Notes: generated from the letters alone by a model not told the origin. A stretch of 35,782 bases of DNA from Candidatus Moraniibacteriota bacterium (GCA_037137555.1 JBAXKA010000003.1:1-35782); one strand, 5' to 3'. Positions 15,835 to 35,782 are shown, counted from the stretch's first letter. Program-made: numbers and translations.

Positions 15835-17670
15835 TTACTCTTTTTTAGCCTTATAAATACTCACAAAGTTTTTTGGTCTGCCATCAATATTTATTTTCCA
15901 CATAGGCTTTTCCGACAAATCCTCTTTAAGAATATTCCAAATTTTATTATTTGCTATTGCTCCCCTGCGTGTCATAACATAATAATCAATCGTATTTTCT
16001 TCTGACTTTCCCATATAATTATTATACCCAGAAGCTTGAATGCAAGTTCCATTAAAAAAATAACAGACGCCCCAATAATCTGACCAGACTTTTAAATTAG
16101 TCGAATTTGGCAAAGCATTTAAAATTTGTGCCGCTTCATAACCACCATAACCCCAAGCACCTGTGATAATCCTGTCTTTTGGTAATAAATTACTTGTATA
16201 ATTAAAATAATACGGCTTGATAAACCATAAGCTCAAACTGCTTATGCCAACAATGACTAGCACTGCTATGAATTTATGTTGCACACGATTTATTTTTCCT
16301 AAAATAAACTCATCAATCGAAAAAGCTGCGATCAACATTAATAATGGATAAAGCATCACGCTATAACGAATATTAACTAAAAGATCTTGCTTTAAAACCG
16401 CCGCATAAAAAACAATCAAAAAAACTGAAGCAGAAAAAACAATCAAAGGATATTTTAATTTTACAAATATGCCCTTAATCCATAAGGCGATGACTGAAAA
16501 TAAAACTAATGGGGTGAGAGAAAAAACTAGTGGATAAATTTCCAGAAATAATTTATCCTGAAAGTCTTGTCTGCGAAATGGATAGCTACTCCCCGCATCA
16601 AAATTCATGCCTTTTATGTTTAAAAAATTATCCATACCAAACCAGTTAAATAAAACCAAACAAAACATCGTTGCAATAATAAAAAATATTACTCTCATCA
16701 AGAACGGAAAAATCTTGTTAATTATTTTTGCCAGAAAAAACATAATTCTAGATTGCAAAAAATGAGCATCAAGATAAATCAACAAATTCAATAACATAAT
16801 AGACCAAAATATTGGTGCCATGCCCTTAAAACCAATTGTGCCGTAATAAAAAAAACTAGGGTCAACAATAACAGCTGGCATCAATATCGCGAAAACAAAA
16901 AATGAACCAGCTAAAATAGCTAAATAAGTTAATATATTTTCCTTGGCTCTTTTGGAAAAATCAAGCTGATTTTTTTCTTGCAACAGATGAATCAATATCA
17001 ACATAAAGAAAAACGGAATAAAAATAACGGCCGAATATTTACTTAAAAGTGCAAAGCCAAATAATATCGAGCATAAAATGGCATCTTTTTTTCCTCGATA
17101 TTTCAGATAATTTAAAAGTGAAATGAGTGCAGAGAAAGAAAAAATCCATAAAAGCGAATCGGGATTGATGATTTGAGAAACGCCAATAATAATCGGGTTC
17201 AATAAAATCAAAGTTACGGCGGTTAGTGCTAGCCATCTATTTTCCGTTAAGCGTTTGATTGCCCAAAAAAGAAATAGTGAAAATAATCCGTTGAAAATTA
17301 GAAGTGGCAAACGAAACGCTAGATTAATTCTTTCCGTTTCCGCGGATGTAAAATTACTTTGATAATCCGCTGTTTCAATAGTGCGTTCATGTAAATTATC
17401 TTCAAATAAAATTCCAATACCAGAAACATACGCCAACATCACTCCGGGTTTATCATTTATTCGTGTGCTTAGCCAATCATTTTTTGCAATCGCATTCCAA
17501 TAATCATGAATCCTACCTGCCGTTGGATCATACATCCAATAATGCTCATCGGCTGTTTCGAATTTTGTTATATGATAAACACCAAAAGCAAAATAAAGAC
17601 TGAGCGGTATTAAAAGCAGTAGCAAAAATTTGCTTTTTAGTTGTTTTTTTATGGATTGAATTTTTTGCAT
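15835..17670 (-). CDS. GT-C / PMT_2-family membrane glycosyltransferase (paralogue A)
   Basis: Aligns along its whole length with the upstream paralogue (FETADEHYWMY...RINDKPGVMLAYVSG vs FVSFDEHYWLY...RINDKPGITLAYVSG). I trimmed the track ORF (to 17919) to the ATG at 17670 (MQKIQSIKK...), because the extension overlaps the upstream gene. Confidence 0.8.
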   Translation of the reverse strand: MQKIQSIKKQLKSKFLLLLLIPLSLYFAFGVYHITKFETADEHYWMYDPTAGRIHDYWNAIAKNDWLSTRINDKPGVMLAYVSGIGILFEDNLHERTIETADYQSNFTSAETERINLAFRLPLLIFNGLFSLFLFWAIKRLTENRWLALTAVTLILLNPIIIGVSQIINPDSLLWIFSFSALISLLNYLKYRGKKDAILCSILFGFALLSKYSAVIFIPFFFMLILIHLLQEKNQLDFSKRAKENILTYLAILAGSFFVFAILMPAVIVDPSFFYYGTIGFKGMAPIFWSIMLLNLLIYLDAHFLQSRIMFFLAKIINKIFPFLMRVIFFIIATMFCLVLFNWFGMDNFLNIKGMNFDAGSSYPFRRQDFQDKLFLEIYPLVFSLTPLVLFSVIALWIKGIFVKLKYPLIVFSASVFLIVFYAAVLKQDLLVNIRYSVMLYPLLMLIAAFSIDEFILGKINRVQHKFIAVLVIVGISSLSLWFIKPYYFNYTSNLLPKDRIITGAWGYGGYEAAQILNALPNSTNLKVWSDYWGVCYFFNGTCIQASGYNNYMGKSEENTIDYYVMTRRGAIANNKIWNILKEDLSEKPMWKINIDGRPKNFVSIYKAKKE

Positions 17671-17680
17671 TGTTTCATTA

Positions 17681-19741
17681 TTATTCTGTGCCAATTGCAC
17701 CTTCGACTTTCTTAGCTTTAAAAACTCGCACATAATTCTTATACCGACCATCGATTTCCAGATTAAAAACTGGTTTTCCATCTTCTCTATAAATTGGTCC
17801 CACGAAATTTGGACGCAATTGATTTTGCAGTGTGGCATAAAAATAATCAATTGGATATTGTTCTGTTCTTGTTTTTGCTTTACGAATACATTTGCCAATA
17901 TAAAATTCACAAAAACCATATGAATCCGCCCAGACTATTGTATTTTTCGCATCAGGCAATTTATTCATTTCTTGGGCTATCTCATAACCACCATAACCCC
18001 AACCACTAGTAATGATATATTTTTTTGGCAAAAAATCATTGCTATAACTAAAATAATACGGCCTGATCAGCCAGATGCTTAAGCAAGCCGAACAGACAAC
18101 TAATAAATATATTACTCCGTAAGTCAAATTGCGCAACTTATTCCAGTTTATAAAAATATAAATTAGTTTTGTTGTTATAACAACCACGGAAATAACAATC
18201 AATGCAAAAATAATTCGGTGAAAATTATAAAAAATTCGCAAATTTGCTTCACTAATAATTTTAGCTTGTTCAAAAGAAGATGTCATAAATAAAAGCAGGA
18301 TTATTGAAAATAGCAATGCGAAAAAAATTAAAAATTTTCGCGAATCTTTATGTTCTTTTTCTTTTTGGGCTATAAAAAAATTCTCCAGCGCAATCGCTGA
18401 AAGCAAAGCAGAAATAGGAAAAAGAATAATACTATAACGAATAGTCAAAACCAAGCCTTGCTTAATTACTGCTAGATAAAAAATAAAAATAAAAGCTGAT
18501 AAAATAAATGTCAAATATTCCTGCTTAATTTTTTGAAAGATACTTTTTGACCAAAGATAAATTAAAGAAAATAAAATTATTGGCAAAGAAGCAAAGGCTA
18601 ACGGCACGGTTTCCATAATGAATTGAGAGCTTAATGGCAAATTGCCAAACTCTGGTTTTCGTTTCATATCAAAAGAAATATCTGAAAGATCAATCAAGCG
18701 ATGACGAAGCATCCAATTAATTAAAACGATGACAATACTAGAAAGCAATAATAATGCAACTAATTTTGGCGCATTTTTTTTGACAAATTGCAATTTTTCT
18801 AATAAATAATATAAAATTTTATTTTGATTAAAATAAGCATCCGCCATAAGTAGCAAATTGACCAACATTGAAAACCAAAAGATTGGAGCCATACCGGGAA
18901 AACCAATCGTGCCGGCATAAAAAAATTGTGGCTCAACAAAAACAGCTGGCATCATTAAAGCAAAAATCAAAAAACCGCCAAAAACAATTCCCAGATAAGC
19001 TAAGCTGTTTTTTAAAACGAGCGCTTTTAATTTTTCTGCTTTATTTGTCCAACCAGAAAATTCAAATAAATAAAAAGCTAACAGCATAAAAAGAAAAAAC
19101 GGAACGAGAATAACACTCACATATTTGCTCGCCATAGACAAACCAAAGAAAAATAGCGTTAGCCAAAAATATTTTTTTTCAGTTTGCAAGAGCCAAGCCG
19201 CAAAAGTCAACATCGCCGCGAAAGCAAAAATCCAAAACAACGAATCCGGATTAACAATTTGCGAGATCCCAATAATCACAGGAGAAAGATATATTAAAGC
19301 AACTGCCAAAAGTGCCAGCCATTCATTCTTTGTGATCTTTTTAATGATCCAGAAAAAATAAAAAATAAAAAAACCAGTCGTCAACAAGATTGGCAAACGA
19401 AAGAGAAAATTAATTTTCTCTGTTTTTTGCGGATCAAAAATTTTCACGGTTTTATCTGTAAAAATCACATGTTCATCTACGATATTATTATCAAAAAGCA
19501 ACGCCAGTCCGGAAACATAGGCGAGTGTAATTCCTGGTTTATCATTGATTCTTGTTTTTTCCCAATCCCCTTCGGCAATTGCTTTCCAATATTGATGGAT
19601 TCGATCATTATCCGAATTATACAACCAATAATGTTCATCAAATGAAACAAACTTAGTCAGATGCGTAAATCCAAAAAAGAAATACACAGCCAAGACAACT
19701 AACAATAAAAATTTAATTTGATATTTTTTTTTAATCAGCAT
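17681..19741 (-). CDS. GT-C / PMT_2-family membrane glycosyltransferase (paralogue B)
   Basis: 686 aa. DEHYW loop motif, many TM helices, and a conserved C-terminal domain (GWGYGGYE...). It is in tandem with paralogue A, 10 nt apart. Confidence 0.8.
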   Translation of the reverse strand: MLIKKKYQIKFLLLVVLAVYFFFGFTHLTKFVSFDEHYWLYNSDNDRIHQYWKAIAEGDWEKTRINDKPGITLAYVSGLALLFDNNIVDEHVIFTDKTVKIFDPQKTEKINFLFRLPILLTTGFFIFYFFWIIKKITKNEWLALLAVALIYLSPVIIGISQIVNPDSLFWIFAFAAMLTFAAWLLQTEKKYFWLTLFFFGLSMASKYVSVILVPFFLFMLLAFYLFEFSGWTNKAEKLKALVLKNSLAYLGIVFGGFLIFALMMPAVFVEPQFFYAGTIGFPGMAPIFWFSMLVNLLLMADAYFNQNKILYYLLEKLQFVKKNAPKLVALLLLSSIVIVLINWMLRHRLIDLSDISFDMKRKPEFGNLPLSSQFIMETVPLAFASLPIILFSLIYLWSKSIFQKIKQEYLTFILSAFIFIFYLAVIKQGLVLTIRYSIILFPISALLSAIALENFFIAQKEKEHKDSRKFLIFFALLFSIILLLFMTSSFEQAKIISEANLRIFYNFHRIIFALIVISVVVITTKLIYIFINWNKLRNLTYGVIYLLVVCSACLSIWLIRPYYFSYSNDFLPKKYIITSGWGYGGYEIAQEMNKLPDAKNTIVWADSYGFCEFYIGKCIRKAKTRTEQYPIDYFYATLQNQLRPNFVGPIYREDGKPVFNLEIDGRYKNYVRVFKAKKVEGAIGTE

Positions 19742-25794: not shown

Positions 25795-26619
25795 TTAATT
25801 AACTAAAAAACTTTTTTTTGTTTCCTTGTTTGTCAGTAGTGATTTCATCTGAATAATCGCAGTAATATTTAATTTTTGAATTCGATCTTCAGAGGACAGT
25901 CCATCGCGAATCAACAATGCATTGATACTTTCGAGGTTTGATAAAACCACGAGCTGTTCGATTGAAGCGTAATCTCTAATATTTCCAACTAATTTTCTAT
26001 TTTGATCTCGCCATATTTTTGCAGTTATTCCAAACAAAGCAACATTTAGTAAATCCGCTTCGCTGGCATATTGCATATTAATTTGGTTTTTAGTTAATTC
26101 TGGCGGGATCAATTTCTCTTTTATGGCGTCAGTATGAATCCGATAATTTACTTTTGCCAAAGTTCTTTGAAAACTCCACTCAAGTTTTAAATTATTTGAT
26201 TCACTATCTTTAAGACGCTGAAATTCTTTGATCAGATATATTTTGAATTCAGCGCTAATCCACATTCCGAATTCGAATGCAATATCTTTATGCGCATATG
26301 TTCCGCCATATCTTCCAGTTGTCGCCTTTAATCCTATGGCATTAGTTTTTTCAACCCAGTCCTTTGCACTTATCTTATAATTATTTAAACCGGCCTTACT
26401 TTTAATTATGGCGAATTCGCCATAATTAAAAGCTGGATTATAAATACTTTCCCAAATCCCTATAAATTCAACCGTATTTCTATTTCGAAGCCAGTCAGAA
26501 ATGAAAAAATCACCATCTTTTGCTTTAAGCATGTCCGTCAAAGAAATATAATCATCACCATGATATTTAACGATGGTGATTTCACTTCCTTTTACAATAA
26601 TTTTCGTTTTCTTTGGCAT
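25795..26619 (-). CDS. KilA-N domain-containing protein
   Basis: YISLTDM...WLRNRNTVEFIGIWE...GRYGGTYAHKDIAFEFGMWISAEFKIYLIKEFQRLK is the familiar bacterial KilA-N family pattern. I chose the start at ATG 26619 (MPKKTKIIV); the track start 26652 overlaps the upstream gene. Confidence 0.8.
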   Translation of the reverse strand: MPKKTKIIVKGSEITIVKYHGDDYISLTDMLKAKDGDFFISDWLRNRNTVEFIGIWESIYNPAFNYGEFAIIKSKAGLNNYKISAKDWVEKTNAIGLKATTGRYGGTYAHKDIAFEFGMWISAEFKIYLIKEFQRLKDSESNNLKLEWSFQRTLAKVNYRIHTDAIKEKLIPPELTKNQINMQYASEADLLNVALFGITAKIWRDQNRKLVGNIRDYASIEQLVVLSNLESINALLIRDGLSSEDRIQKLNITAIIQMKSLLTNKETKKSFLVN

Positions 26620-26629
26620 ATACTTTTTT

Positions 26630-27682
26630 TTAAAACAAAACCGAAATGTCATCTGGGGAATTTTTTTCTAAATTATTTTCGAAATCTTTCAACTCGTTAT
26701 TTTTAAATTCCACTTGACCAGTTGCCTTATTCCAAAAAAGATCTTTTGCGAAAATATGAATGTCAAAATCTTTGATATATTTATCCAACCAACCAGCAAA
26801 ATTATTCGTGCGCACAAAGATTTGCTTCAACTGAACTTTTTCCGCATCATCCTCACTTTTTCTATCTTCCAGAAAAATAATATGATAACCCAGTGAGCTT
26901 TCAATTATTGCACTTCGTTCGCCCTTTTTTAGACCAAAGACAACCTGAGCTATTTCCGGCAACATTTCTGATCCGCTAAACCAACCCAATTCGCCATCAC
27001 TTTTAGCACTCTCACCTTCAGAATATTTTCGAGCAACATCAGCGAAAGTTTTTTTCTCAGTCAATTCTTTTTGAGCCAAAGTTATCTTATTTTTTGCTTC
27101 CGTTCTGGCTTTATCATTTTCTTTGATATTTTCAAATAATTTTTCTTGATACATATCCGGCTTCACAATATTTTCTTCAAAATCTGCTATTGTCCAACCA
27201 TATAATTTTGTTAAATTATTTTTAAGATATTCTTCACTACCATATTCTTGCATTTTTCGAGAAACTGCTTGAGAAATATCTTCCGGATTTATCGTCAAAC
27301 CTCTTTTTCTGGCTTCATTTTCAATTAGTTTATTTTCAATTAATTTATTTAAAATATTTTTTTCTTTAATTCGCAATCTTTTTTTTCCGTCCTCTGTTGC
27401 AAAATCAACACGCAAACCAAGCTCGGAAAAATCTTGATTTTCATAAAACATTCTGGCAGAATCCAGTTGACTTTTCAATTTATTTTCACTAATAAAATTT
27501 GTGCTCCAACTAGCCACGGGATAAGGCACAATCGCTGTGGTTTTTCGGGTCAATTTATTATCCACATTAAAACCATAAATTAAAATTGCGATTATGCTAA
27601 AATATAAAAACAAAAAAAACAAAAGGCTCAATATTATTGTGAGTAGTTTAATTTTTTTTAGATTAGCTTTTTTTTGCATCAT
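26630..27682 (-). CDS. Parvulin-type peptidyl-prolyl cis-trans isomerase (PrsA/SurA-like), membrane anchored
   Basis: GELGWFSGSEMLPEIAQVVFGLKKGERSAIIESSLGYHIIFLEDR is a PPIC rotamase signature, with an N-terminal TM helix. The track start 27691 is TTG; the first ATG is at 27682. Confidence 0.85.
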   Translation of the reverse strand: MMQKKANLKKIKLLTIILSLLFFLFLYFSIIAILIYGFNVDNKLTRKTTAIVPYPVASWSTNFISENKLKSQLDSARMFYENQDFSELGLRVDFATEDGKKRLRIKEKNILNKLIENKLIENEARKRGLTINPEDISQAVSRKMQEYGSEEYLKNNLTKLYGWTIADFEENIVKPDMYQEKLFENIKENDKARTEAKNKITLAQKELTEKKTFADVARKYSEGESAKSDGELGWFSGSEMLPEIAQVVFGLKKGERSAIIESSLGYHIIFLEDRKSEDDAEKVQLKQIFVRTNNFAGWLDKYIKDFDIHIFAKDLFWNKATGQVEFKNNELKDFENNLEKNSPDDISVLF

Positions 27683-30101: not shown

Positions 30102-30917
30102 TTATTCTAGTGGACTTTTAATTTTCCTTAACATCGGATTAGTCACTTTCGTATAAATCTGGGTTGTTCTAATGTTAGCATGCCCTAGCAATTCTTGCAC
30201 GAAACGAACATCTACGCCATTTTCTAACAAATGCGTTGCAAAACTATGACGCAAAGAATGAAATGTCGCCTCTTTTTTAATTCCCGCTTTTTTGAGTGCA
30301 GTTTCAAAAACTTTTTGTGCAGTTCTTTCGGTTAATTTTCCACCGCGTTCACTAGCGAAAATATAATCATTGAGTTTTTTGTTTGCAATTAATTTTTCAA
30401 CATCACCAATTAGTTTTTCCGGCAAAAGTGTTATCCGATCTTTATTTCTTTTAGCGTCTTTAATGTGAATCGTCAATTCCGCCAAACAAACATCTTTAAC
30501 TTTCAAATTAATAATCTCACTCACCCGCAAACCACCAGAATAAGCCAAAGCAATCATCAAATTATGTTTTTTATTATTAATTACTAGCAATATTTTTTCA
30601 ATTTCAGCGCGAGAAAGCACAATCGGTAACTTGCTTGGAGTCTTGGCAAAGCGCACATCAATTTTTCCCCGAAATTTCAAAACATTCCAGCAGAAGAAGT
30701 TAATCGCTTGCAAATTCTGATTAGACATCTGCGATGATTTCCCCTCATCTATTTTTGACAAAATATACTGCTTAATAAAATCCACATCAACAATTTCAAA
30801 ATTATTCTGTTTAGCTTTTAAATAATTAGTAACACAATAAGTATATGCACTGATAGTTTTTGGACTATATTTTCTCAATCGCAATTCATCATTTAGTTTT
30901 TTTAAGTAAAAATCCAT
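30102..30917 (-). CDS. Tyrosine site-specific recombinase, integron-integrase-like but lacking the IntI-specific insertion
   Basis: 271 aa. R (GGLRVSE), HSLRHSFATH (HxxR) and LLGHANIRTTQIYTKV (H, Y). SAM-like N-terminal domain (YSPKTISAYTYCVTNYL) and a ...KSPLE C-terminus. It is divergent from the cassette array. Confidence 0.85.
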   Translation of the reverse strand: MDFYLKKLNDELRLRKYSPKTISAYTYCVTNYLKAKQNNFEIVDVDFIKQYILSKIDEGKSSQMSNQNLQAINFFCWNVLKFRGKIDVRFAKTPSKLPIVLSRAEIEKILLVINNKKHNLMIALAYSGGLRVSEIINLKVKDVCLAELTIHIKDAKRNKDRITLLPEKLIGDVEKLIANKKLNDYIFASERGGKLTERTAQKVFETALKKAGIKKEATFHSLRHSFATHLLENGVDVRFVQELLGHANIRTTQIYTKVTNPMLRKIKSPLE

Positions 30918-30925
30918 TTATTTAT

Positions 30926-30954
30926 TTGACACATTATTACAATTTGAGTATAAT
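30926..30954 (+). promoter_or_regulatory. Pc-like cassette promoter, perfect sigma70 consensus
   Basis: TTGACA (30926-31), a 17-nt spacer, then TATAAT (30949-54). It points into attI and the cassette array. Confidence 0.65.
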
Positions 30955-30957
30955 TAA

Positions 30958-30986
30958 ATCATACAGAATATTCACAAAAATAGCAA
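30958..30986 (-). promoter_or_regulatory. Candidate recombinase promoter (Pint-like), face-to-face with Pc
   Basis: On the minus strand: TTGCTA (30986-81), a 17-nt spacer, then TATGAT (30963-58), about 40 nt upstream of the recombinase ATG (30917). Confidence 0.45.
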
Positions 30987-30998
30987 TATTATGCATGC

Positions 30999-31037
30999 TA
31001 TCTGAAAACACTTCGGATATAAACGAGTTATCTGAAA
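30999..31037 (+). other. attI-like site: two direct TATCTGAAA boxes; inferred crossover G|TT at 31027/31028
   Basis: TATCTGAAA occurs at 30999-31007 and at 31029-31037. The second box is part of GTTATCTG (31027-34), the exact reverse complement of cassette 1's inverse core CAGATAAC (32349-56). Confidence 0.65.
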
Positions 31038-31139
31038 TTTGCTTTTTCTTTTCGCCTATCGGCGACGCATTTCTGTAATGAATTAATTGAATTTATTTAT
31101 TTTAAAAGGGGGTATAAGGAAGAAAACTTTATTAATATT

Positions 31140-32222
31140 TTGAATACAAATATGGAAAAATTCTCACCAGAATTAGTACAAGCGCAAACTGAGGCTCTTG
31201 ATATTCAAAAAAAAGCAAAAGAGGAGAAAGAAAAGAAAGGAGAAGTCGGAAGTTTAAGCAACGAAGATTATGAGAATGCTTGCCTGCCCCGCGTTGAAAG
31301 TTATGAGAAATTTTTGGAGGAAAATACAAAACTAGAATCCTTCGTTGATCACATTGAGCAAAACTCCCCAAATGGCGAAATAAATATATACAGTCCTGAA
31401 TTTTGGTATTCCTATCAGAAATTTATTGAAACTGTTTGGACAAAAGAAGGATTGGCACAATTAAACAGTAAGGACTACGAGGATTTTGAAGATTATAGAC
31501 ATGATTCCAATAAAATGCGAAAACCGATTGATCATGTTTTTTCTAACGGTGCATCTATTTTCAGGGGTAACGAACATTTCAATAGAATAAAACAGCGTTC
31601 TCTTTTGAATACTTTAAATAAAAATGGCATATCTACTGAAAACCTGCAAACCATAAAAGATTCATTTGCACATTATTATCGTAGCGATGGCGGCTATGGA
31701 CCAAAAAATATTAGCAAAAGTGCCTTGGAGCAATCGTACTTACAACGAATTGAGGCAGTCAAAAAATTGAACCAAAGTCAAGAACTATCGAAAATAACCG
31801 AAATCTGGGATGAATACGGATTACTTGATTCTCTATCTAGCGAGGTCAGCACATGTTTTGGCGGGCGCAACGAAACGCCAATTATAAGAAAGATAAGAGA
31901 GAAGCACAAAAATTCTTTTAAGGAAAAAAAGTTTAAAGAAATTGAGTTAGCTATAGTTGAAACAATTACCTTAAACGGACTAAAGGATAGCTTTTTATTA
32001 ACAAAAGAGTATGACAAATTAATTGAAATAGAGAAAAAAGACCCAAATTTAATAAAATCAGCTATTGCTGGAACATCCGCCCTCACCTTTGTTGTACTTA
32101 CTTCCAATATAGTCTCAACAGTAGTTGGAGACGCTTACGCATACACCCCAATAGGTGCAGTTCCAAATATTGATAGTATTTCTCGCGAGATGAAAGAGTT
32201 TTGTTGCGACGTAGAAGAGTAA
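31140..32222 (+). CDS. Cassette 1 ORF: hypothetical protein with C-terminal TM helix
   Basis: 360-aa ORF (TTG in the track; first ATG at 31152, MEKFSPEL...). The N-terminus is charged and the C-terminus has a hydrophobic segment, SAIAGTSALTFVVLTSNIVSTVVG. No motif recognised. Confidence 0.6.
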   Translation: MNTNMEKFSPELVQAQTEALDIQKKAKEEKEKKGEVGSLSNEDYENACLPRVESYEKFLEENTKLESFVDHIEQNSPNGEINIYSPEFWYSYQKFIETVWTKEGLAQLNSKDYEDFEDYRHDSNKMRKPIDHVFSNGASIFRGNEHFNRIKQRSLLNTLNKNGISTENLQTIKDSFAHYYRSDGGYGPKNISKSALEQSYLQRIEAVKKLNQSQELSKITEIWDEYGLLDSLSSEVSTCFGGRNETPIIRKIREKHKNSFKEKKFKEIELAIVETITLNGLKDSFLLTKEYDKLIEIEKKDPNLIKSAIAGTSALTFVVLTSNIVSTVVGDAYAYTPIGAVPNIDSISREMKEFCCDVEE

Positions 32223-32228
32223 TAAGGA

Positions 32229-32281
32229 GTCTTTGTTTCTGGGCATTCACCCCTTAATCCCCTCTGCCCAAAAACAAAGAC
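32229..32281 (+). other. Stem-loop with conserved C-rich loop after the cassette 1 ORF (homologue of 8473-8527)
   Basis: GTCTTTGTTTCTGGGC (32229-44) pairs with GCCCAAAAACAAAGAC (32266-81) at 15/16 bp. The loop is ATTCACCCCTTAATCCCCTCT. The stem sequence differs from the 8.5-kb copy while pairing is kept. Confidence 0.7.
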
Positions 32282-32348
32282 AAAATTCAATTAATTCATT
32301 ACAGAAATACTATTCCTCTGCTGAGGAATGAAAAGAAAAAGCAAACAT

Positions 32349-32437
32349 CAGATAACACGGCATATCTGGTTACGGCTTTTTACAAAAGCCTCCACCCAAA
32401 TTGCTACGCAACTTCAGATATGCCGAAACGTTAGCTG
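32349..32437 (+). other. attC-like site 1 (89 bp)
   Basis: R'' CAGATAAC; P1 GGCATATCTG (32359-68) pairs with CAGATATGCC (32415-24); P2 GGCTTTT/AAAAGCC; conserved CCACCCAAATT (32392-402); R' GTTAGCTG (32430-37). Confidence 0.75.
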
Positions 32438-33815
32438 AAATAAATTTTTATCTTTGTAGTAATTTCAAGTTCTGTGCGTTGATCAAAGACGAAAATTTGA
32501 TTTTTTAAATTAAAAGTTTTTTCCGCTTCGCGGATTATTTGGGGGCAATTTTATTTTTTATTTTAAATACAATATGATGAACAAACAAATCAACACCGCT
32601 TTGGCGATTGCGGTAATAATCATAATCGCTGGAATTGCGGGCGGAACAATTTATACAAACATTGCGAATAACAATCCGGCCACAATTATTCCTGTAATCA
32701 ATAAAACTCAACAAAACAAAGTTATTAGCAAATCTTCAGATGATATTGCTATAGGCAAGTCATGTGATGCTCGTAATTTAAAATCCTACAACGGTGGCGG
32801 AGAAATTGCAGCCACAAAAGGTTTACAATGTTATATGTACGACGACCTTTCTGACAGAATGCTTAACAATGGCAAGTGGATTTATCCGAGCGGCAAGGAA
32901 ACGGTTCGCAAGGGCGTTTGGGTTTATCCGAATCATATGAGCATACCGATATTCTTAGCCCAAGAAAAACCTTCCTTGTTTGATACGGTTTCAATAAATG
33001 ACCTTACACAAAACTGGAAGTTATACGATAATTCCAACGGTAATTATAGTTTTAAGTTTCCGAAACAATGGGAAGTAAAAAAAGACGCTTCAAATGCAAA
33101 CCAATTGACAATAGAAAAAATAAATACGACCGAAGCAAATACTATATTCGCAACAATCACATATTATCCGAATGCTAAATTCGAAACTACAGATGATTAT
33201 CAAAATATTAACGAAGCTCCAGATGATTGGCTTGTGCCTGACAATTCTACTGACACATTCATCCTTACTCGCCATTTTGATTTAAATGGCGCTACTGCAC
33301 TCTTAGTCGAAAGAATGAATAATTTTGACTTGGGTGGAAGTTCTTATGGCGAAACAATTTTTGTCACTAAGCCAAATTCATATTTTACGATTGAATATAC
33401 AAAATATCAGGACGCCGATATTGATTTGCCAGTAGAGATGTTAATTAAAACCTTACGGTTTAAATAACATCTTATAAAAAAATAAGGAAGAAAAATAAAA
33501 AATAAAATTGCCCCCAAATAATCGTTTTGCCATTCGGCAAAACAAAAACTTTTAATTTAAAAAATCAAATTTTCTTTACGATAAGCAAAGTTTATACTGT
33601 TAAAGACGAAGATAAAAATTTACATCAGCTAACACGGAGTAAACGGTTCAGAAATTTTTCAATATTAATAATTAGAGGAGTAAAAAATTTCTTCACCCAA
33701 ATTCGTTTTCCTTAGTCAGTGCCATTATCAAGATTAGTGCATTTAATATAATTCCGTTAAGATAACAAAGTTTAATCAATTAAGTCGGAAAACGAACTTC
33801 GTTTACTCCGATACG
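32431..33815 (+). mobile_element. Gene cassette 2
   Basis: Opens TTAGCTG and ends at G of GTTATGTG. The IR arms are 32430-32564 and 33492-33633, including perfect 31-bp (32491-521/33544-74) and 32-bp (32533-64/33492-523) blocks. Confidence 0.75.
32574..33467 (+). CDS. Cassette 2 ORF: secreted/membrane-anchored hypothetical protein
   Basis: 297 aa. N-terminal signal-anchor (ALAIAVIIIIAGIAGGTIY) and then a soluble domain. No motif recognised. Confidence 0.65.
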   Translation: MMNKQINTALAIAVIIIIAGIAGGTIYTNIANNNPATIIPVINKTQQNKVISKSSDDIAIGKSCDARNLKSYNGGGEIAATKGLQCYMYDDLSDRMLNNGKWIYPSGKETVRKGVWVYPNHMSIPIFLAQEKPSLFDTVSINDLTQNWKLYDNSNGNYSFKFPKQWEVKKDASNANQLTIEKINTTEANTIFATITYYPNAKFETTDDYQNINEAPDDWLVPDNSTDTFILTRHFDLNGATALLVERMNNFDLGGSSYGETIFVTKPNSYFTIEYTKYQDADIDLPVEMLIKTLRFK

Positions 33816-33822
33816 TTATGTG
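33626..33822 (+). other. attC-like site 2 (197 bp)
   Basis: R'' CAGCTAAC; P1 GGAGTAAACG (33636-45) pairs with CGTTTACTCC (33800-09); P2 33650-59/33683-92; conserved TCACCCAAATT (33693-703); P3 CGTTTTCC (33704-11) pairs with GGAAAACG (33787-94); R' GTTATGTG (33815-22). Confidence 0.75.
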
Positions 33823-34957
33823 AAATACCCAGAAATTTCTTTATTCATTTTTAAGATTTTTTTGGCGAATGCACGGGTCGAATAACTCAGATATAAATAA
33901 TTAAAATTAATTTTAAAAAACAAAGTATGAAAAACAAAAGAGGAAACGTTGCCGTAATTGCGCTTATCATCGTTATTGTGGCAATTACAACAGGCGTAAT
34001 CACTTGGCTTATCGCGACAAAAACACAAGCGCCAGTTCAGCAGGCAGTTGTAACTCAACCTGCGCCAGTTGCAAAAACACAGCCAGTAGTTCAATCTACC
34101 ACGCCAACTGCACAGTCAACACCAGCTAGCGATGTGAGTAAACAGGGCATTAAAGAATATAAATCAGGGAATACATTCAGTTTTAATTATCCTTCTCAAG
34201 TTTGTGATCCTGAAAGTAAAAAATGTTATCCGATTGTGTTGTCTGAAGATAAATCAGTAATCACACTAAATGCTTCAGAAGGTGGTTTATTTAAGATTTA
34301 TTATGGTACAAATATTACTGATGATAAATCAGCTAATAATTTCTTACAAACCACATTGAAGAACGGACTATGCAAGATTGATACAACTGAAACTAATATG
34401 CTACAAGGAACAACGATTAAAAATGTTTTCTTAGATGGAGGTTGTTCTCTTTATGGTCCTGCATATGAAAAATATTCTTCTGCTCATCCGGATGCAATTG
34501 GCTTAGCTGGAAAAAATAGGGCTTATTGGGCAACTGATAGCAAGGAAATGATTGTCTATGTTCTTGGTCAGGGAGGTGGTTGTTCATTTCTTGATTGTGA
34601 ATTGGAAGGAAAAATATCAGAAAGTATTAACCTTGGTGGAATCAATGTATTTGATAAATCTATGAGTGGAATTTAAAAACAGTGTCGCAAAAGAAATAAT
34701 TTTTTGAATTCATAAATGCAATTCGCCAAAAAATACATTAAGGAGGAAGAAATTTCTGGGTACATCACATAACAGCCCATATCTGGCTACAGGAAATTGA
34801 CGCTATTGAAAACAATATTGAGTGTCAATTTCCCTCCGCCCAAATTTTCATCCCTTAGTTTTGATGAAGGTTTAGGTGGAGTTCATCAAAAAATATATCA
34901 GCCTATAATCAAAGTCTATCCTATAAAACGGGATGAAAACTTCAGATATGGGCAACG
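33816..34957 (+). mobile_element. Gene cassette 3
   Basis: Opens TTATGTG and ends at G of GTTAGGCG. The IR arms are 33815-33872 and 34718-34773, with a perfect 16-bp block at 33826-41/34747-62. Confidence 0.75.
33927..34676 (+). CDS. Cassette 3 ORF: membrane-anchored extracytoplasmic protein with P/T/Q/V-rich linker
   Basis: 249 aa. N-terminal TM (VAVIALIIVIVAITTGVITWLIA), the linker QAPVQQAVVTQPAPVAKTQPVVQSTTPTAQSTPA, and a Cys-containing globular domain. Confidence 0.65.
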   Translation: MKNKRGNVAVIALIIVIVAITTGVITWLIATKTQAPVQQAVVTQPAPVAKTQPVVQSTTPTAQSTPASDVSKQGIKEYKSGNTFSFNYPSQVCDPESKKCYPIVLSEDKSVITLNASEGGLFKIYYGTNITDDKSANNFLQTTLKNGLCKIDTTETNMLQGTTIKNVFLDGGCSLYGPAYEKYSSAHPDAIGLAGKNRAYWATDSKEMIVYVLGQGGGCSFLDCELEGKISESINLGGINVFDKSMSGI

Positions 34958-34964
34958 TTAGGCG
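34766..34964 (+). other. attC-like site 3 (199 bp)
   Basis: R'' CACATAAC; P1 CCCATATCTG (34776-85) pairs with CAGATATGGG (34943-52); P2 AGGAAATTGAC (34791-801) pairs with GTCAATTTCC (34824-33); conserved CCGCCCAAATT (34836-46); P3 TTTCATCCC (34846-54) pairs with GGGATGAAA (34930-38); R' GTTAGGCG (34957-64). Confidence 0.75.
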
Positions 34965-35072
34965 AAAAAACTAAAAATTTCCTCTCTATTTTTGAAAAGA
35001 ATTTTTGGCAATTTTGCTCGGTCGATAACTCGGTATATAATTAAGATAAGTTTAACAAATTAAAAAAAAATT

Positions 35073-35627
35073 ATGAAAAAAGTATTAGCAATAAGTTCGG
35101 TGTTGCTTGGAGTCGTCTTTTTGGCTGGGTGTGGTCAACAGCCGGTGAGTCAAACGCAGCCAACAACGCCAGCTCCCATAGTGAAACAGCCAGCAACTAC
35201 TCCTCCGGTCGCAACTCAACCAGCGCCAACAACTCCAGCCGTCACTCAAAATTACATTGAAGTAAAAGAATTGGGATTCAAGATTCCCGTTGATGCCTCA
35301 AGCGCAAATGAGATAACTTACAAAATTACACAAGTCACAAAAGACAGTCCAACTCCTGGCGTGTACTTTTCAACCAAGGAGCTAAACTCAATGAGTAAGG
35401 ATTGCGAAGAAGGATCGATTGGGGCAATTTCAAAAGTGTCTGGCAAAGTATCCACAGATCCTAATTCAGAAAATTTCATGCCAGGAGAAATAAAACAACT
35501 CCAAGGTTTTTCACTGGTATTTCAGACTCCTCAAGCCCCTTGTCACTCCGGCGACAACTCTCTGGATAGAAAATTTATGCAAATCCTTGAAACTGGATTT
35601 AAAAATGCGGTTCTACTTGGTCAGTAA
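35073..35627 (+). CDS. Cassette 4 ORF: lipoprotein with P/T/Q-rich linker
   Basis: 184 aa. Signal peptide with lipobox (VFLAGC|GQQ), the linker QPTTPAPIVKQPATTPPVATQPAPTTPAV, and then a globular domain. Confidence 0.7.
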   Translation: MKKVLAISSVLLGVVFLAGCGQQPVSQTQPTTPAPIVKQPATTPPVATQPAPTTPAVTQNYIEVKELGFKIPVDASSANEITYKITQVTKDSPTPGVYFSTKELNSMSKDCEEGSIGAISKVSGKVSTDPNSENFMPGEIKQLQGFSLVFQTPQAPCHSGDNSLDRKFMQILETGFKNAVLLGQ

Positions 35628-35674
35628 ATTGCCAAAAATTCTTTATCATTAAGAATGGAAATTTTTAGTTTCAT

Positions 35675-35782
35675 CGCCTAACAACGCATATCTGGCTACA
35701 GGAAAATCACTCAAATATATTCAAAGGATGTGATTTTCCCTCCGCCCAAATTTTCATCCCTTAGTTTTGATGAAGGTTTAGG
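35675..35782 (+). other. attC-like site 4 (partial)
   Basis: R'' CGCCTAAC (35675-82), the reverse complement of the cassette 4 opening GTTAGGCG; P1 5' strand GCATATCTG; P2 AGGAAAATCAC/GTGATTTTCC (covaries with site 3). The rest is near-identical to site 3 up to the window edge. Confidence 0.7.

Follow-up and report, generated by a model that had tools for sequence, protein, structure and literature searches.

A 35,782-nt stretch of DNA from a Candidatus Moraniibacteriota bacterium (GCA_037137555.1 JBAXKA010000003.1:1-35782; hereafter the window) probably harbors a chromosomal platform for gene-cassette capture that is integron-like in its working and built of Xer-type parts. Between positions 30,102 and 35,782, four array open reading frames (ORFs), all on the plus strand and separated by structured sites, are divergent from a minus-strand tyrosine recombinase gene. 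Integrons are defined by the special domain of their integrase, IntI; how IntI arose from Xer-type enzymes, and where attC sites and their cassettes came from, are unsettled matters. The recombinase here has no such domain, and the array that it adjoins follows the cassette rule of integrons and, in natural populations, is visibly active. We regard it as a real, active and apparently undescribed Xer-type analogue of the integron, not as a member of the integron family. The original prediction, made from the sequence of the stretch, was of a system of integron type, active now or until recently, whose enzyme and sites depart from the canon, possibly an undescribed variant. 'Integron-like' and 'active' stand, the latter on population sequences, but 'integron' does not suit an enzyme without the IntI insertion. 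The departure from the canon is confirmed in a XerA-like recombinase and in unusual hairpin sites, and a literature search, with most subscription journals outside its reach, found no description of such a system in bacteria of the Candidate Phyla Radiation (CPR).

The platform and its array comprise the following parts (aa, amino acids):

30102–30917, minus strand: gene for a 271-aa tyrosine recombinase, XerA/'Cand'-like, with motifs GLRVSE, HSLRHSFATHLL and LLGHANIRTTQIYT
30926–30954, plus strand: candidate Pc-like promoter facing the array, TTGACA-17-TATAAT, a 12/12 consensus match
30966–31038, plus strand: attI-like region with accessory boxes AATATTCACAAA and GCAATATT and the invariant GAAAACACTTC; core of ACTTCGGATAT (31010–31020), AAACGAG (31021–31027) and TTATCTGAAAT (31028–31038)
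31028–32430, plus strand: cassette 1, ORF 31140–32222 (360 aa, no family), terminal inverted repeats 31024–31094 and 32283–32359
32349–32437, plus strand: site E1, short class, 89 nt, DNA fold z = -5.6, covariance-model match of 100.9 bits; in order R'' CAGATAAC, L'' CGGCATATCTG, hairpin 1, CTCCACCCAAAT, hairpin 2, AACTTC, L' CAGATATGCCG, AAAC, R' G|TTAGCTG
32431–33815, plus strand: cassette 2, ORF 32574–33467 (297 aa), inverted repeats 32430–32564 and 33492–33633 extending to the start and stop codons
33626–33822, plus strand: site E2, long class, 197 nt, L stem GGAGTAAACG/CGTTTACTCC covarying relative to E1
33816–34957, plus strand: cassette 3, ORF 33927–34676 (249 aa), inverted repeats 33815–33841 and 34747–34773
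34766–34964, plus strand: site E3, long class, 199 nt
34958–35782, plus strand: cassette 4, continuing into site E4; ORF 35073–35627 (184 aa, lipoprotein-type signal LAGC), inverted repeats 34957–35014 and 35626–35682
35675–35782, plus strand: site E4, cut by the window end and complete in the longer contig L001 of the same genome (5045–5243), where it ends ...taaacG|TTATACG

Strand exchange takes place between the G and the TT of a site's R' arm (G|TT). This is the exact point at which cassettes have changed order and at which different arrays share them. In L086, L087 and L093, which come from three samples and two assembly pipelines, cassette 4 precedes cassette 3 instead of following it, at 100% identity. 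The E4–cassette 3 junction, ...gatgcgtaaacG|TTATGTGaaataccc (TTATGTGaaa after the G), is 100% identical in all three; the two blocks share only 7 nt there (ACGTTAT) and join at one fixed phosphate. The first 141 nt of L087 are also its last 141 nt, and it closes to 2,051 bp, the sum of cassette 4 (909) and cassette 3 (1,142). L086 contains the N-terminus of a different recombinase with its attI, and the G|TT of that attI leads directly into cassette 4; this left flank is 83.8% identical to L037, and the recombinase of the L037 lineage is 62% identical to that of the window. A metagenome scan with the attI core returned 105 stretches. Near-identical 70-nt attI left flanks (≤3 mismatches) were followed by two to four different sequences starting exactly after the G, two of which (L129 and L136, differing right of attI) came from the same sample, and chance matches of the core in coding DNA displayed no such right-side polymorphism. 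The polymorphism at G|TT junctions that had been predicted is thus present as a swapped cassette order, as cassette 4 at another attI, and as varying first cassettes.

These junctions bear on an explanation at the RNA level, in which the elements would terminate a polycistronic transcript or have it processed by RNase III, and homologous recombination between repeats would make the junctions vary. It would account for the complementarity of each cassette's 5' and 3' untranslated parts up to the ORF and for co-oriented ORFs behind a strong consensus promoter. However, a shared block of just 7 nt with one fixed phosphate, the end of attI conservation at G|TT and the lack of any Rfam match for the sites make it very improbable as a replacement for recombination, although an RNA role could exist alongside.

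The cassettes themselves carry the imprint of the same crossover. All eight 8-mers named in the original prediction lie where it placed them, and in 4/4 window cassettes the 8-mer at the start recurs as its exact reverse complement at the head of the cassette's own 3' element, a match with a chance of ~1/256 per cassette when GTTA/TAAC is fixed. The rule had been expected to extend to further cassettes, and it does. On L001 (ENA), which carries the array beyond the window, it holds at 7/8 positions in cassette 5 (GTTATACG / CGCATAAC) and at 8/8 in cassette 6 (GTTATGTG / CACATAAC), and it recurs in 24 other genomes. Across 38 sites from these 24 related genomes, R'' complemented the start of its own cassette exactly in 27/38 and with at most one mismatch in 34/38 (mean 0.42), versus 3/38 exact and a mean of 2.26 mismatches between R'' and R' of the same site (Wilcoxon p = 9e-7) and 2.8% exact in a control with another cassette's 8-mer. 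In the alignment, pairing within the same-site R stem is correspondingly poor at its four variable positions. A crossover between G and TT predicts exactly this, with R'' complementing its own cassette start and not the R' of the same site. As in integrons, each unit comprises an ORF and an imperfect palindromic site with R'', L'', L' and R' boxes and AAC...GTT. The predicted RYYYAAC...G|TTRRRY signature holds for the invariant AAC/GTT and the G|TT crossover but not for the full consensus, from which, for example, AGATAAC departs.

The 8-mers had been taken for the cassette boundary elements; their positions and their rule stand, but they are merely the base of far longer inverted repeats. These repeats are cassette-specific, span 30–135 nt and enclose each ORF, with the 8-mers as their tips. 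With the 8-mers excluded, local alignment of cassette heads with reverse-complemented tails gave a median score of 21.5, compared with 9.5 for mismatched pairs, and complementarity exceeded the control's 99th percentile in 20/34 cassettes.

Structured sites were found in three ways (structural search, motif search and a 3' half-site pattern), the last of which matched 77 times in 189 kb of array strand versus 17 times in 973 kb elsewhere. Thirty-three sites align well, with invariant AACA, CCAAAT, ACTTC and CGTT, and share the order R'', L'', hairpin 1, single-stranded CYTCCRCCCAAAT, hairpin 2, AACTTC-L', an unpaired spacer of 3–4 nt and R' G|TT. In this alignment the proposed structure is 88.3% paired (65.2% in shuffles, 35–45% with slid partners), with a covariation score of 0.516 versus 0.154. 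In hairpins 1 and 2, neither of which was used in site finding, 9/10 and 9/9 pairs, respectively, have changed in both partners, and DNA fold z-scores of the sites range from -4 to -6. The predicted fold consists of the R stem, an internal loop of 1 nt versus 3–4 nt, the L stem, and a three-way junction at which CCCAAAT is single-stranded. With 14 short-class sites as its basis, a covariance model gave 64 matches (E ≤ 0.01) in 1.06 Mb, every one of them upstream of the recombinase gene and on the array strand; the three in the window are all known sites. In long-class sites, a TATAAT-like -10 element (TGnTATAAT in some) sits in the hairpin 2 loop and faces the next cassette (window 33725–33752; alignment columns ~118–140); it could serve as a promoter inside the site.

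We propose a platform that would consist of a short XerA/'Cand'-like recombinase, an array-facing promoter and a double-stranded dif-like attI core, and would receive units made up, as a rule, of a single co-oriented ORF and the structured site after it. This site would act as a folded single strand, like attC and CTX-phi. The long cassette-specific inverted repeats would lengthen the R stem and thereby keep the 11 bp of a Xer-type arm stably duplexed, bases left unpaired on one strand would stand in for the extrahelical bases of attC, and exchange of one strand only (the bottom one, at AA|C) would be resolved by replication. We infer such a folded-strand, single-exchange mechanism because L arms, hairpins and outer repeats change sequence yet keep pairing. 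A plain double-strand reaction is disfavored because the centers differ in sequence and length (7 nt in attI, 8–10 nt in the sites), a mismatch that known tyrosine recombinases do not tolerate in two-step duplex exchange.

Several points weigh against this account. The adjacent recombinase is a presumptive catalyst, placed beside the junctions by assembled sequence. It lacks the IntI domain that binds the extrahelical bases of attC, and would therefore have to recognise a folded strand in some other way. The 98% pairing of the L stem is partly circular because the L stem was used in selecting sites, and the long inverted repeats, foreign to integron cassettes, may have another role such as RNA pairing. 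The L086 join could be an assembly path switch if its organism has a near-identical cassette 4. For the predicted circular cassettes there is the 2,051-bp circular assembly of cassettes 3 and 4 in L087, which fits a circle of two cassettes, but equally a tandem duplication or a cycle that mixed arrays create in the assembly graph. Finally, each site is also readable as two inverted double-stranded dif-like half-sites.

The last point would turn the array into a case of module shuffling like that at the pdif sites of Acinetobacter, with duplex recombination between dif-like 3' half-sites (L' arm, center, R' arm), 5' halves as inverted copies, and no folding. Read directly, a 5' half is ACATCAGATAA-CACGGC-ATATCTGGTTA (11-6-11) and a 3' half ACTTCAGATAT-GCCGAAACG-TTAGCTGAAAT. 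Every element then equals two inverted dif-like sites, and cassettes would therefore be bounded by inverted sites like pdif modules. Yet the L arms are not conserved in sequence but covary with a partner 60–190 nt away. Hairpins 1 and 2 and the cassette-specific repeats covary too, and 3'-half centers of 8–10 nt against the 7 nt of attI, with sequences that differ between partners, would block the full two-step exchange of known tyrosine recombinases. We consider duplex shuffling unlikely and prefer capture through folded sites.

The enzyme beside the array is a complete tyrosine recombinase (Pfam Phage_integrase, 2.1e-44), and its translation displays the catalytic motifs listed above. Against NCBIfam models it scores 210.7 bits for XerA_Arch (cut-off 220), 201.8 bits for the integron integrase TIGR02249 (cut-off 265, match split into two stretches), 174.7 bits for XerD (cut-off 329.6) and 168.9 bits for XerC (cut-off 335). 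The top solved structure is XerA 5HXY (138.6 bits), followed by IntI4 2A3V (131.6 bits), XerA 4A8E (130.9 bits) and E. coli XerD (91 bits). Fourteen residues (181–194) align where IntI4 has 57 (185–241), and the insertion specific to IntI is hence missing. Among relatives, the 120 closest, 72–93% identical and hosted by Moran-, Wolfe- and Liptonbacteria and other Patescibacteria, are 266–298 aa long, 119 of them ≤280 aa. Neither the TIGR02249 score nor the IntI4 alignment nor these lengths revealed the additional domain around patch III that is specific to IntI. The gene is about as conserved as the neighboring lepA, which it often adjoins, and is inherited vertically; IMG/VR viral contigs contained no close relative (best 26% identity). 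These comparisons mark the recombinase as a XerA-like enzyme without the IntI insertion and the locus as something other than a canonical integron. That it is nonetheless such an integron of odd appearance, with IntI acting on ordinary attC sites, is hardly credible. The architecture, the G|TT rule, the position of attI and the sub-threshold TIGR02249 match do have an integron-like cast, but that match skips the IntI-specific segment, the relatives are uniformly short, and the three-way junction, the conserved CCCAAAT and the long outer repeats of the sites are absent from attC.

The array starts at an attI-like region that adjoins the recombinase gene, with insertion at G|TT (between G31027 and T31028), as in integrons. 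In ~25 genomes its offset from the recombinase ATG is constant (~85 nt) and its pattern is ACTTCG-N-ATATAAA-N-GAG|TT-NNNNN-AAAT: the alignment is invariant via GAAAACACTTC to AGTT, followed by 4–5 variable bases, (G)AAAT and no conservation beyond. The left arm and center are conserved and the right side after G|TT is variable. Read directly, the core has an 11-bp arm, a 7-bp center and an 11-bp arm, with the arms symmetric at 8/11 positions, and fits the layout of a dif-type site (two 11-bp inverted arms, a center of 6–8 bp, 28–30 bp overall). The dif site of E. coli is GGTGCGCATAA-TGTATA-TTATGTTAAAT, and R arms such as TTATGTGAAAT match its XerD arm at 10/11 positions. Nineteen of 46 genome contigs end 100–400 nt upstream of the recombinase start, with breaks at the G|TT crossover or ≤ ~300 nt past it. 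Between the gene and attI, the TTGACA-17-TATAAT match is a Pc-like promoter candidate by its consensus; relatives have a TGnTA(T/C)AAT-type -10 element at the aligned position. Over the whole region, the count of promoter-like sites was not above that of shuffles, and the 12/12 site alone was singled out. Further attI-like regions lie away from any recombinase gene in L110 and L148.

An Xer-like enzyme next to a dif-like core could also mean that the recombinase is an ordinary dimer resolvase, attI the chromosome's dif, and the cassettes integrants resembling integrative mobile elements exploiting Xer (IMEX), as CTX-phi integrates at dif1 as a folded single strand. This explanation is compatible with a capture platform and would alter the platform's purpose; we think it rather doubtful, though far from negligible. 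It draws on XerA being both the best family and the best structure, on an enzyme in another locus (L059) that clears the XerA cut-off, on vertical conservation across Moran-, Wolfe- and Liptonbacteria on a par with lepA, on the 11-7-11 layout with its XerD-like arm, and on the presumption that the 'Cand' recombinases of candidate phyla do Xer's job (PMC8138268). Against it, one 283-kb contig (Ga0209727_1000014) has two attI-like regions (L124 and L161), one linked to a recombinase and one without, and another region follows a tRNA gene and adjoins no recombinase (L155, about 2600–2707); a dif with an ever-changing right arm would be unusual. We also sought a placement of attI at the replication terminus through GC skew, but skew and gene orientation in the window merely track the gene strand and gave no such placement. 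The original prediction had named, among the cases that would overturn it, an ordinary XerC/D acting at a dif elsewhere in the genome; the enzyme is indeed Xer-like, but its site adjoins its own gene and is the insertion point of the array.

Cargo in the arrays is accessory in character. The four window ORFs matched no protein family in Pfam or NCBIfam, and an exact look-up of the cassette 1 protein was negative, probably owing to a different start call. On L001, cassette 5 has two ORFs and cassette 6 encodes a phosphoenolpyruvate-utilising enzyme (809 aa) and a 282-aa ORF; a non-coding mini-cassette and a seventh cassette follow. Across arrays, 64/80 ORFs are co-oriented and roughly one third of 65 scanned have a Pfam match, including a HaeIII restriction-modification pair, Shedu SduA_C, three NUDIX proteins, CbiM, a Na/Ca exchanger, SMR and EamA transporters, nucleotidyltransferases, VanW and a SET domain. 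In a test for enrichment of secreted proteins, an N-terminal hydrophobic helix was called in 15/80 array ORFs versus 61/173 elsewhere, by a crude and unreliable heuristic from which we draw no claim. Arrays are bounded by the recombinase and conserved flanking genes, nearly all array ORFs occur in a single genome only, and similarity between arrays is limited to sites, leaders and trailers. The cassette 4 trailer with E4 is 92.6–92.8% identical to L024 and L032, whereas lepA of L024 is merely ~70% identical to that of the window.

The non-coding part of a cassette is palindromic up to the ORF (e.g. 32533–32564 / 33492–33523), which makes each cassette a giant hairpin with its ORF in the loop. 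In other genomes, similar leaders and trailers enclose ORFs that are unrelated, which hints at a reusable hairpin scaffold. Cassette 4 (34958–35782) has the same leader, signal peptide MKKVLAISSVLLGVVFLAGC..., trailer and site as L024 8242–9207 and L091 900–2226, and the mature protein bodies differ (184 aa in the window, 230 aa in L024, 253 aa in L091). The mini-cassette (~175–185 nt, non-coding) has a 47-nt hairpin bounded by R'/R'' boxes, GTTGTGGCGAAATG...CATTTCGCCACAAC, and then a composite site with a 16-bp L stem. Like the sites it is without an Rfam match, and it looks like an empty cassette. It occurs in the same genome after site E6 (L090 11874–12056), three times in one Wolfebacteria genome (L022 9895–9720, 8697–8520 and 7917–7740), and in L007, L031, L032, L037, L099, L110, L148 and L117/L124/L141. 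It is common to distant CPR lineages and is often the first cassette.

Integrons, especially sedentary chromosomal ones, are the closest parallel. They share a recombinase divergent from a co-oriented array, an attI adjoining the gene, a promoter (here a candidate) facing the array, imperfect-palindrome sites with R''-L''...L'-R' boxes and invariant AAC/GTT, a G|TT crossover by which each cassette carries its own site's end, sites that are similar within a lineage, a vertically inherited recombinase, and accessory, mostly unknown cargo including defense genes. By contrast, the array here has a XerA-like enzyme without the IntI-specific insertion, dif-like R arms of 11–13 bp, sites with a three-way junction and conserved single-stranded CYTCCRCCCAAAT, complementarity that extends 30–135 nt beyond the R boxes as far as the ORF, a seeming leader or promoter of their own in many cassettes, and hosts among CPR bacteria and one DPANN archaeon. 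Xer/dif systems with IMEX (CTX-phi, TLC and VGJ at V. cholerae dif1) offer an Xer-family enzyme, a dif-like core and tandem integrations, and CTX-phi a folded single strand that mimics a duplex site with a single exchange, as we propose for the array. In XerS/difSL, too, the dif site lies near the recombinase gene, and the single-recombinase systems XerA, XerS and XerH resemble the array in this respect. Unlike phages or islands, however, the units here are one-gene cassettes with a dedicated family of structured sites in a reorderable array. Acinetobacter pdif modules are likewise small gene modules that are shuffled among replicons and have Xer-type sites in inverse orientation at their ends, but they use plain 28-bp duplex XerC/XerD sites on plasmids, with enzymes encoded elsewhere; the present array, with its covarying hairpin sites, its one neighboring enzyme and its attI on a chromosomal platform, falls outside their definition. 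Archaeal integrons include cassette arrays in DPANN and other archaea, mostly without detectable IntI (6 IntIs for 539 attCs), and were called by the IntI-specific domain and an attC model (Ghaly et al. 2022, PMC9668308).

An archaeal counterpart of the present system adjoins a XerA. Locus L059 is truly archaeal (Pacearchaeota; it encodes aIF2-alpha, Bud32 and archaeal RecJ), its recombinase passes the XerA_Arch cut-off (236.6 bits), three covariance-model matches lie upstream of the gene, and an attI-like GTTAGTTG has its complement, CAACTAAC, opening the first site. Gene content and site matches indicate that this Pacearchaeota genome has the same architecture next to a bona fide XerA. The covariance model matched none of the other archaeal and Bacteroidota loci whose recombinases are 33–46% identical. 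In one of the archaeal loci (L052, Woesearchaeota), CRISPR-like direct repeats GTTTCAATTTT[GC]CTGATGCAAAAC with spacers stand ~100–230 nt upstream of the XerA-like gene, in array orientation, and in L059 (10769–13873) an intein with N- and C-terminal splicing regions lies within the archaeal SRP54 gene. Elsewhere in the window, the precomputed annotation of L001 places a 285-aa KilA-N domain protein (25795–26652, minus strand) amid housekeeping genes for a SurA-like rotamase, DivIC, ClpB and an HtrA-like protease. Two minus-strand ORFs of 694 and 686 aa (15835–17919 and 17681–19741) overlap by ~240 nt, which may stem from a wrong start codon in the mechanical ORF list or from a frameshift.

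We tentatively entertain, without quite favoring it, the broader idea of a second, Xer-based 'integron' lineage that captures one-gene cassettes via folded hairpin sites at a dif-derived attI and is widespread in CPR and present in DPANN. If true, it would be either the sought-after intermediate between Xer/dif and IntI/attC or an independent invention, and the 'empty' hairpin cassettes and the ORFs in the loops of hairpin scaffolds would then hint at how cassettes arise. If the capture platform itself holds good, hairpin-site gene capture would be possible without the IntI domain. Integron surveys and tools require the IntI domain (PMC9024848, PMC9668308), and in a 2026 study 97% of contigs with 'integron-type' recombinases were without a recognised attC (PMC13323075); the platform could explain part of the large excess of these recombinases, and of the IntI-less arrays, that current tools leave unresolved (PMC13323075, PMC9668308). 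For CPR bacteria, and perhaps DPANN archaea, with their tiny genomes and few known mobile elements, the platform would mean a dedicated route for exchanging restriction-modification systems, Shedu and transporters.

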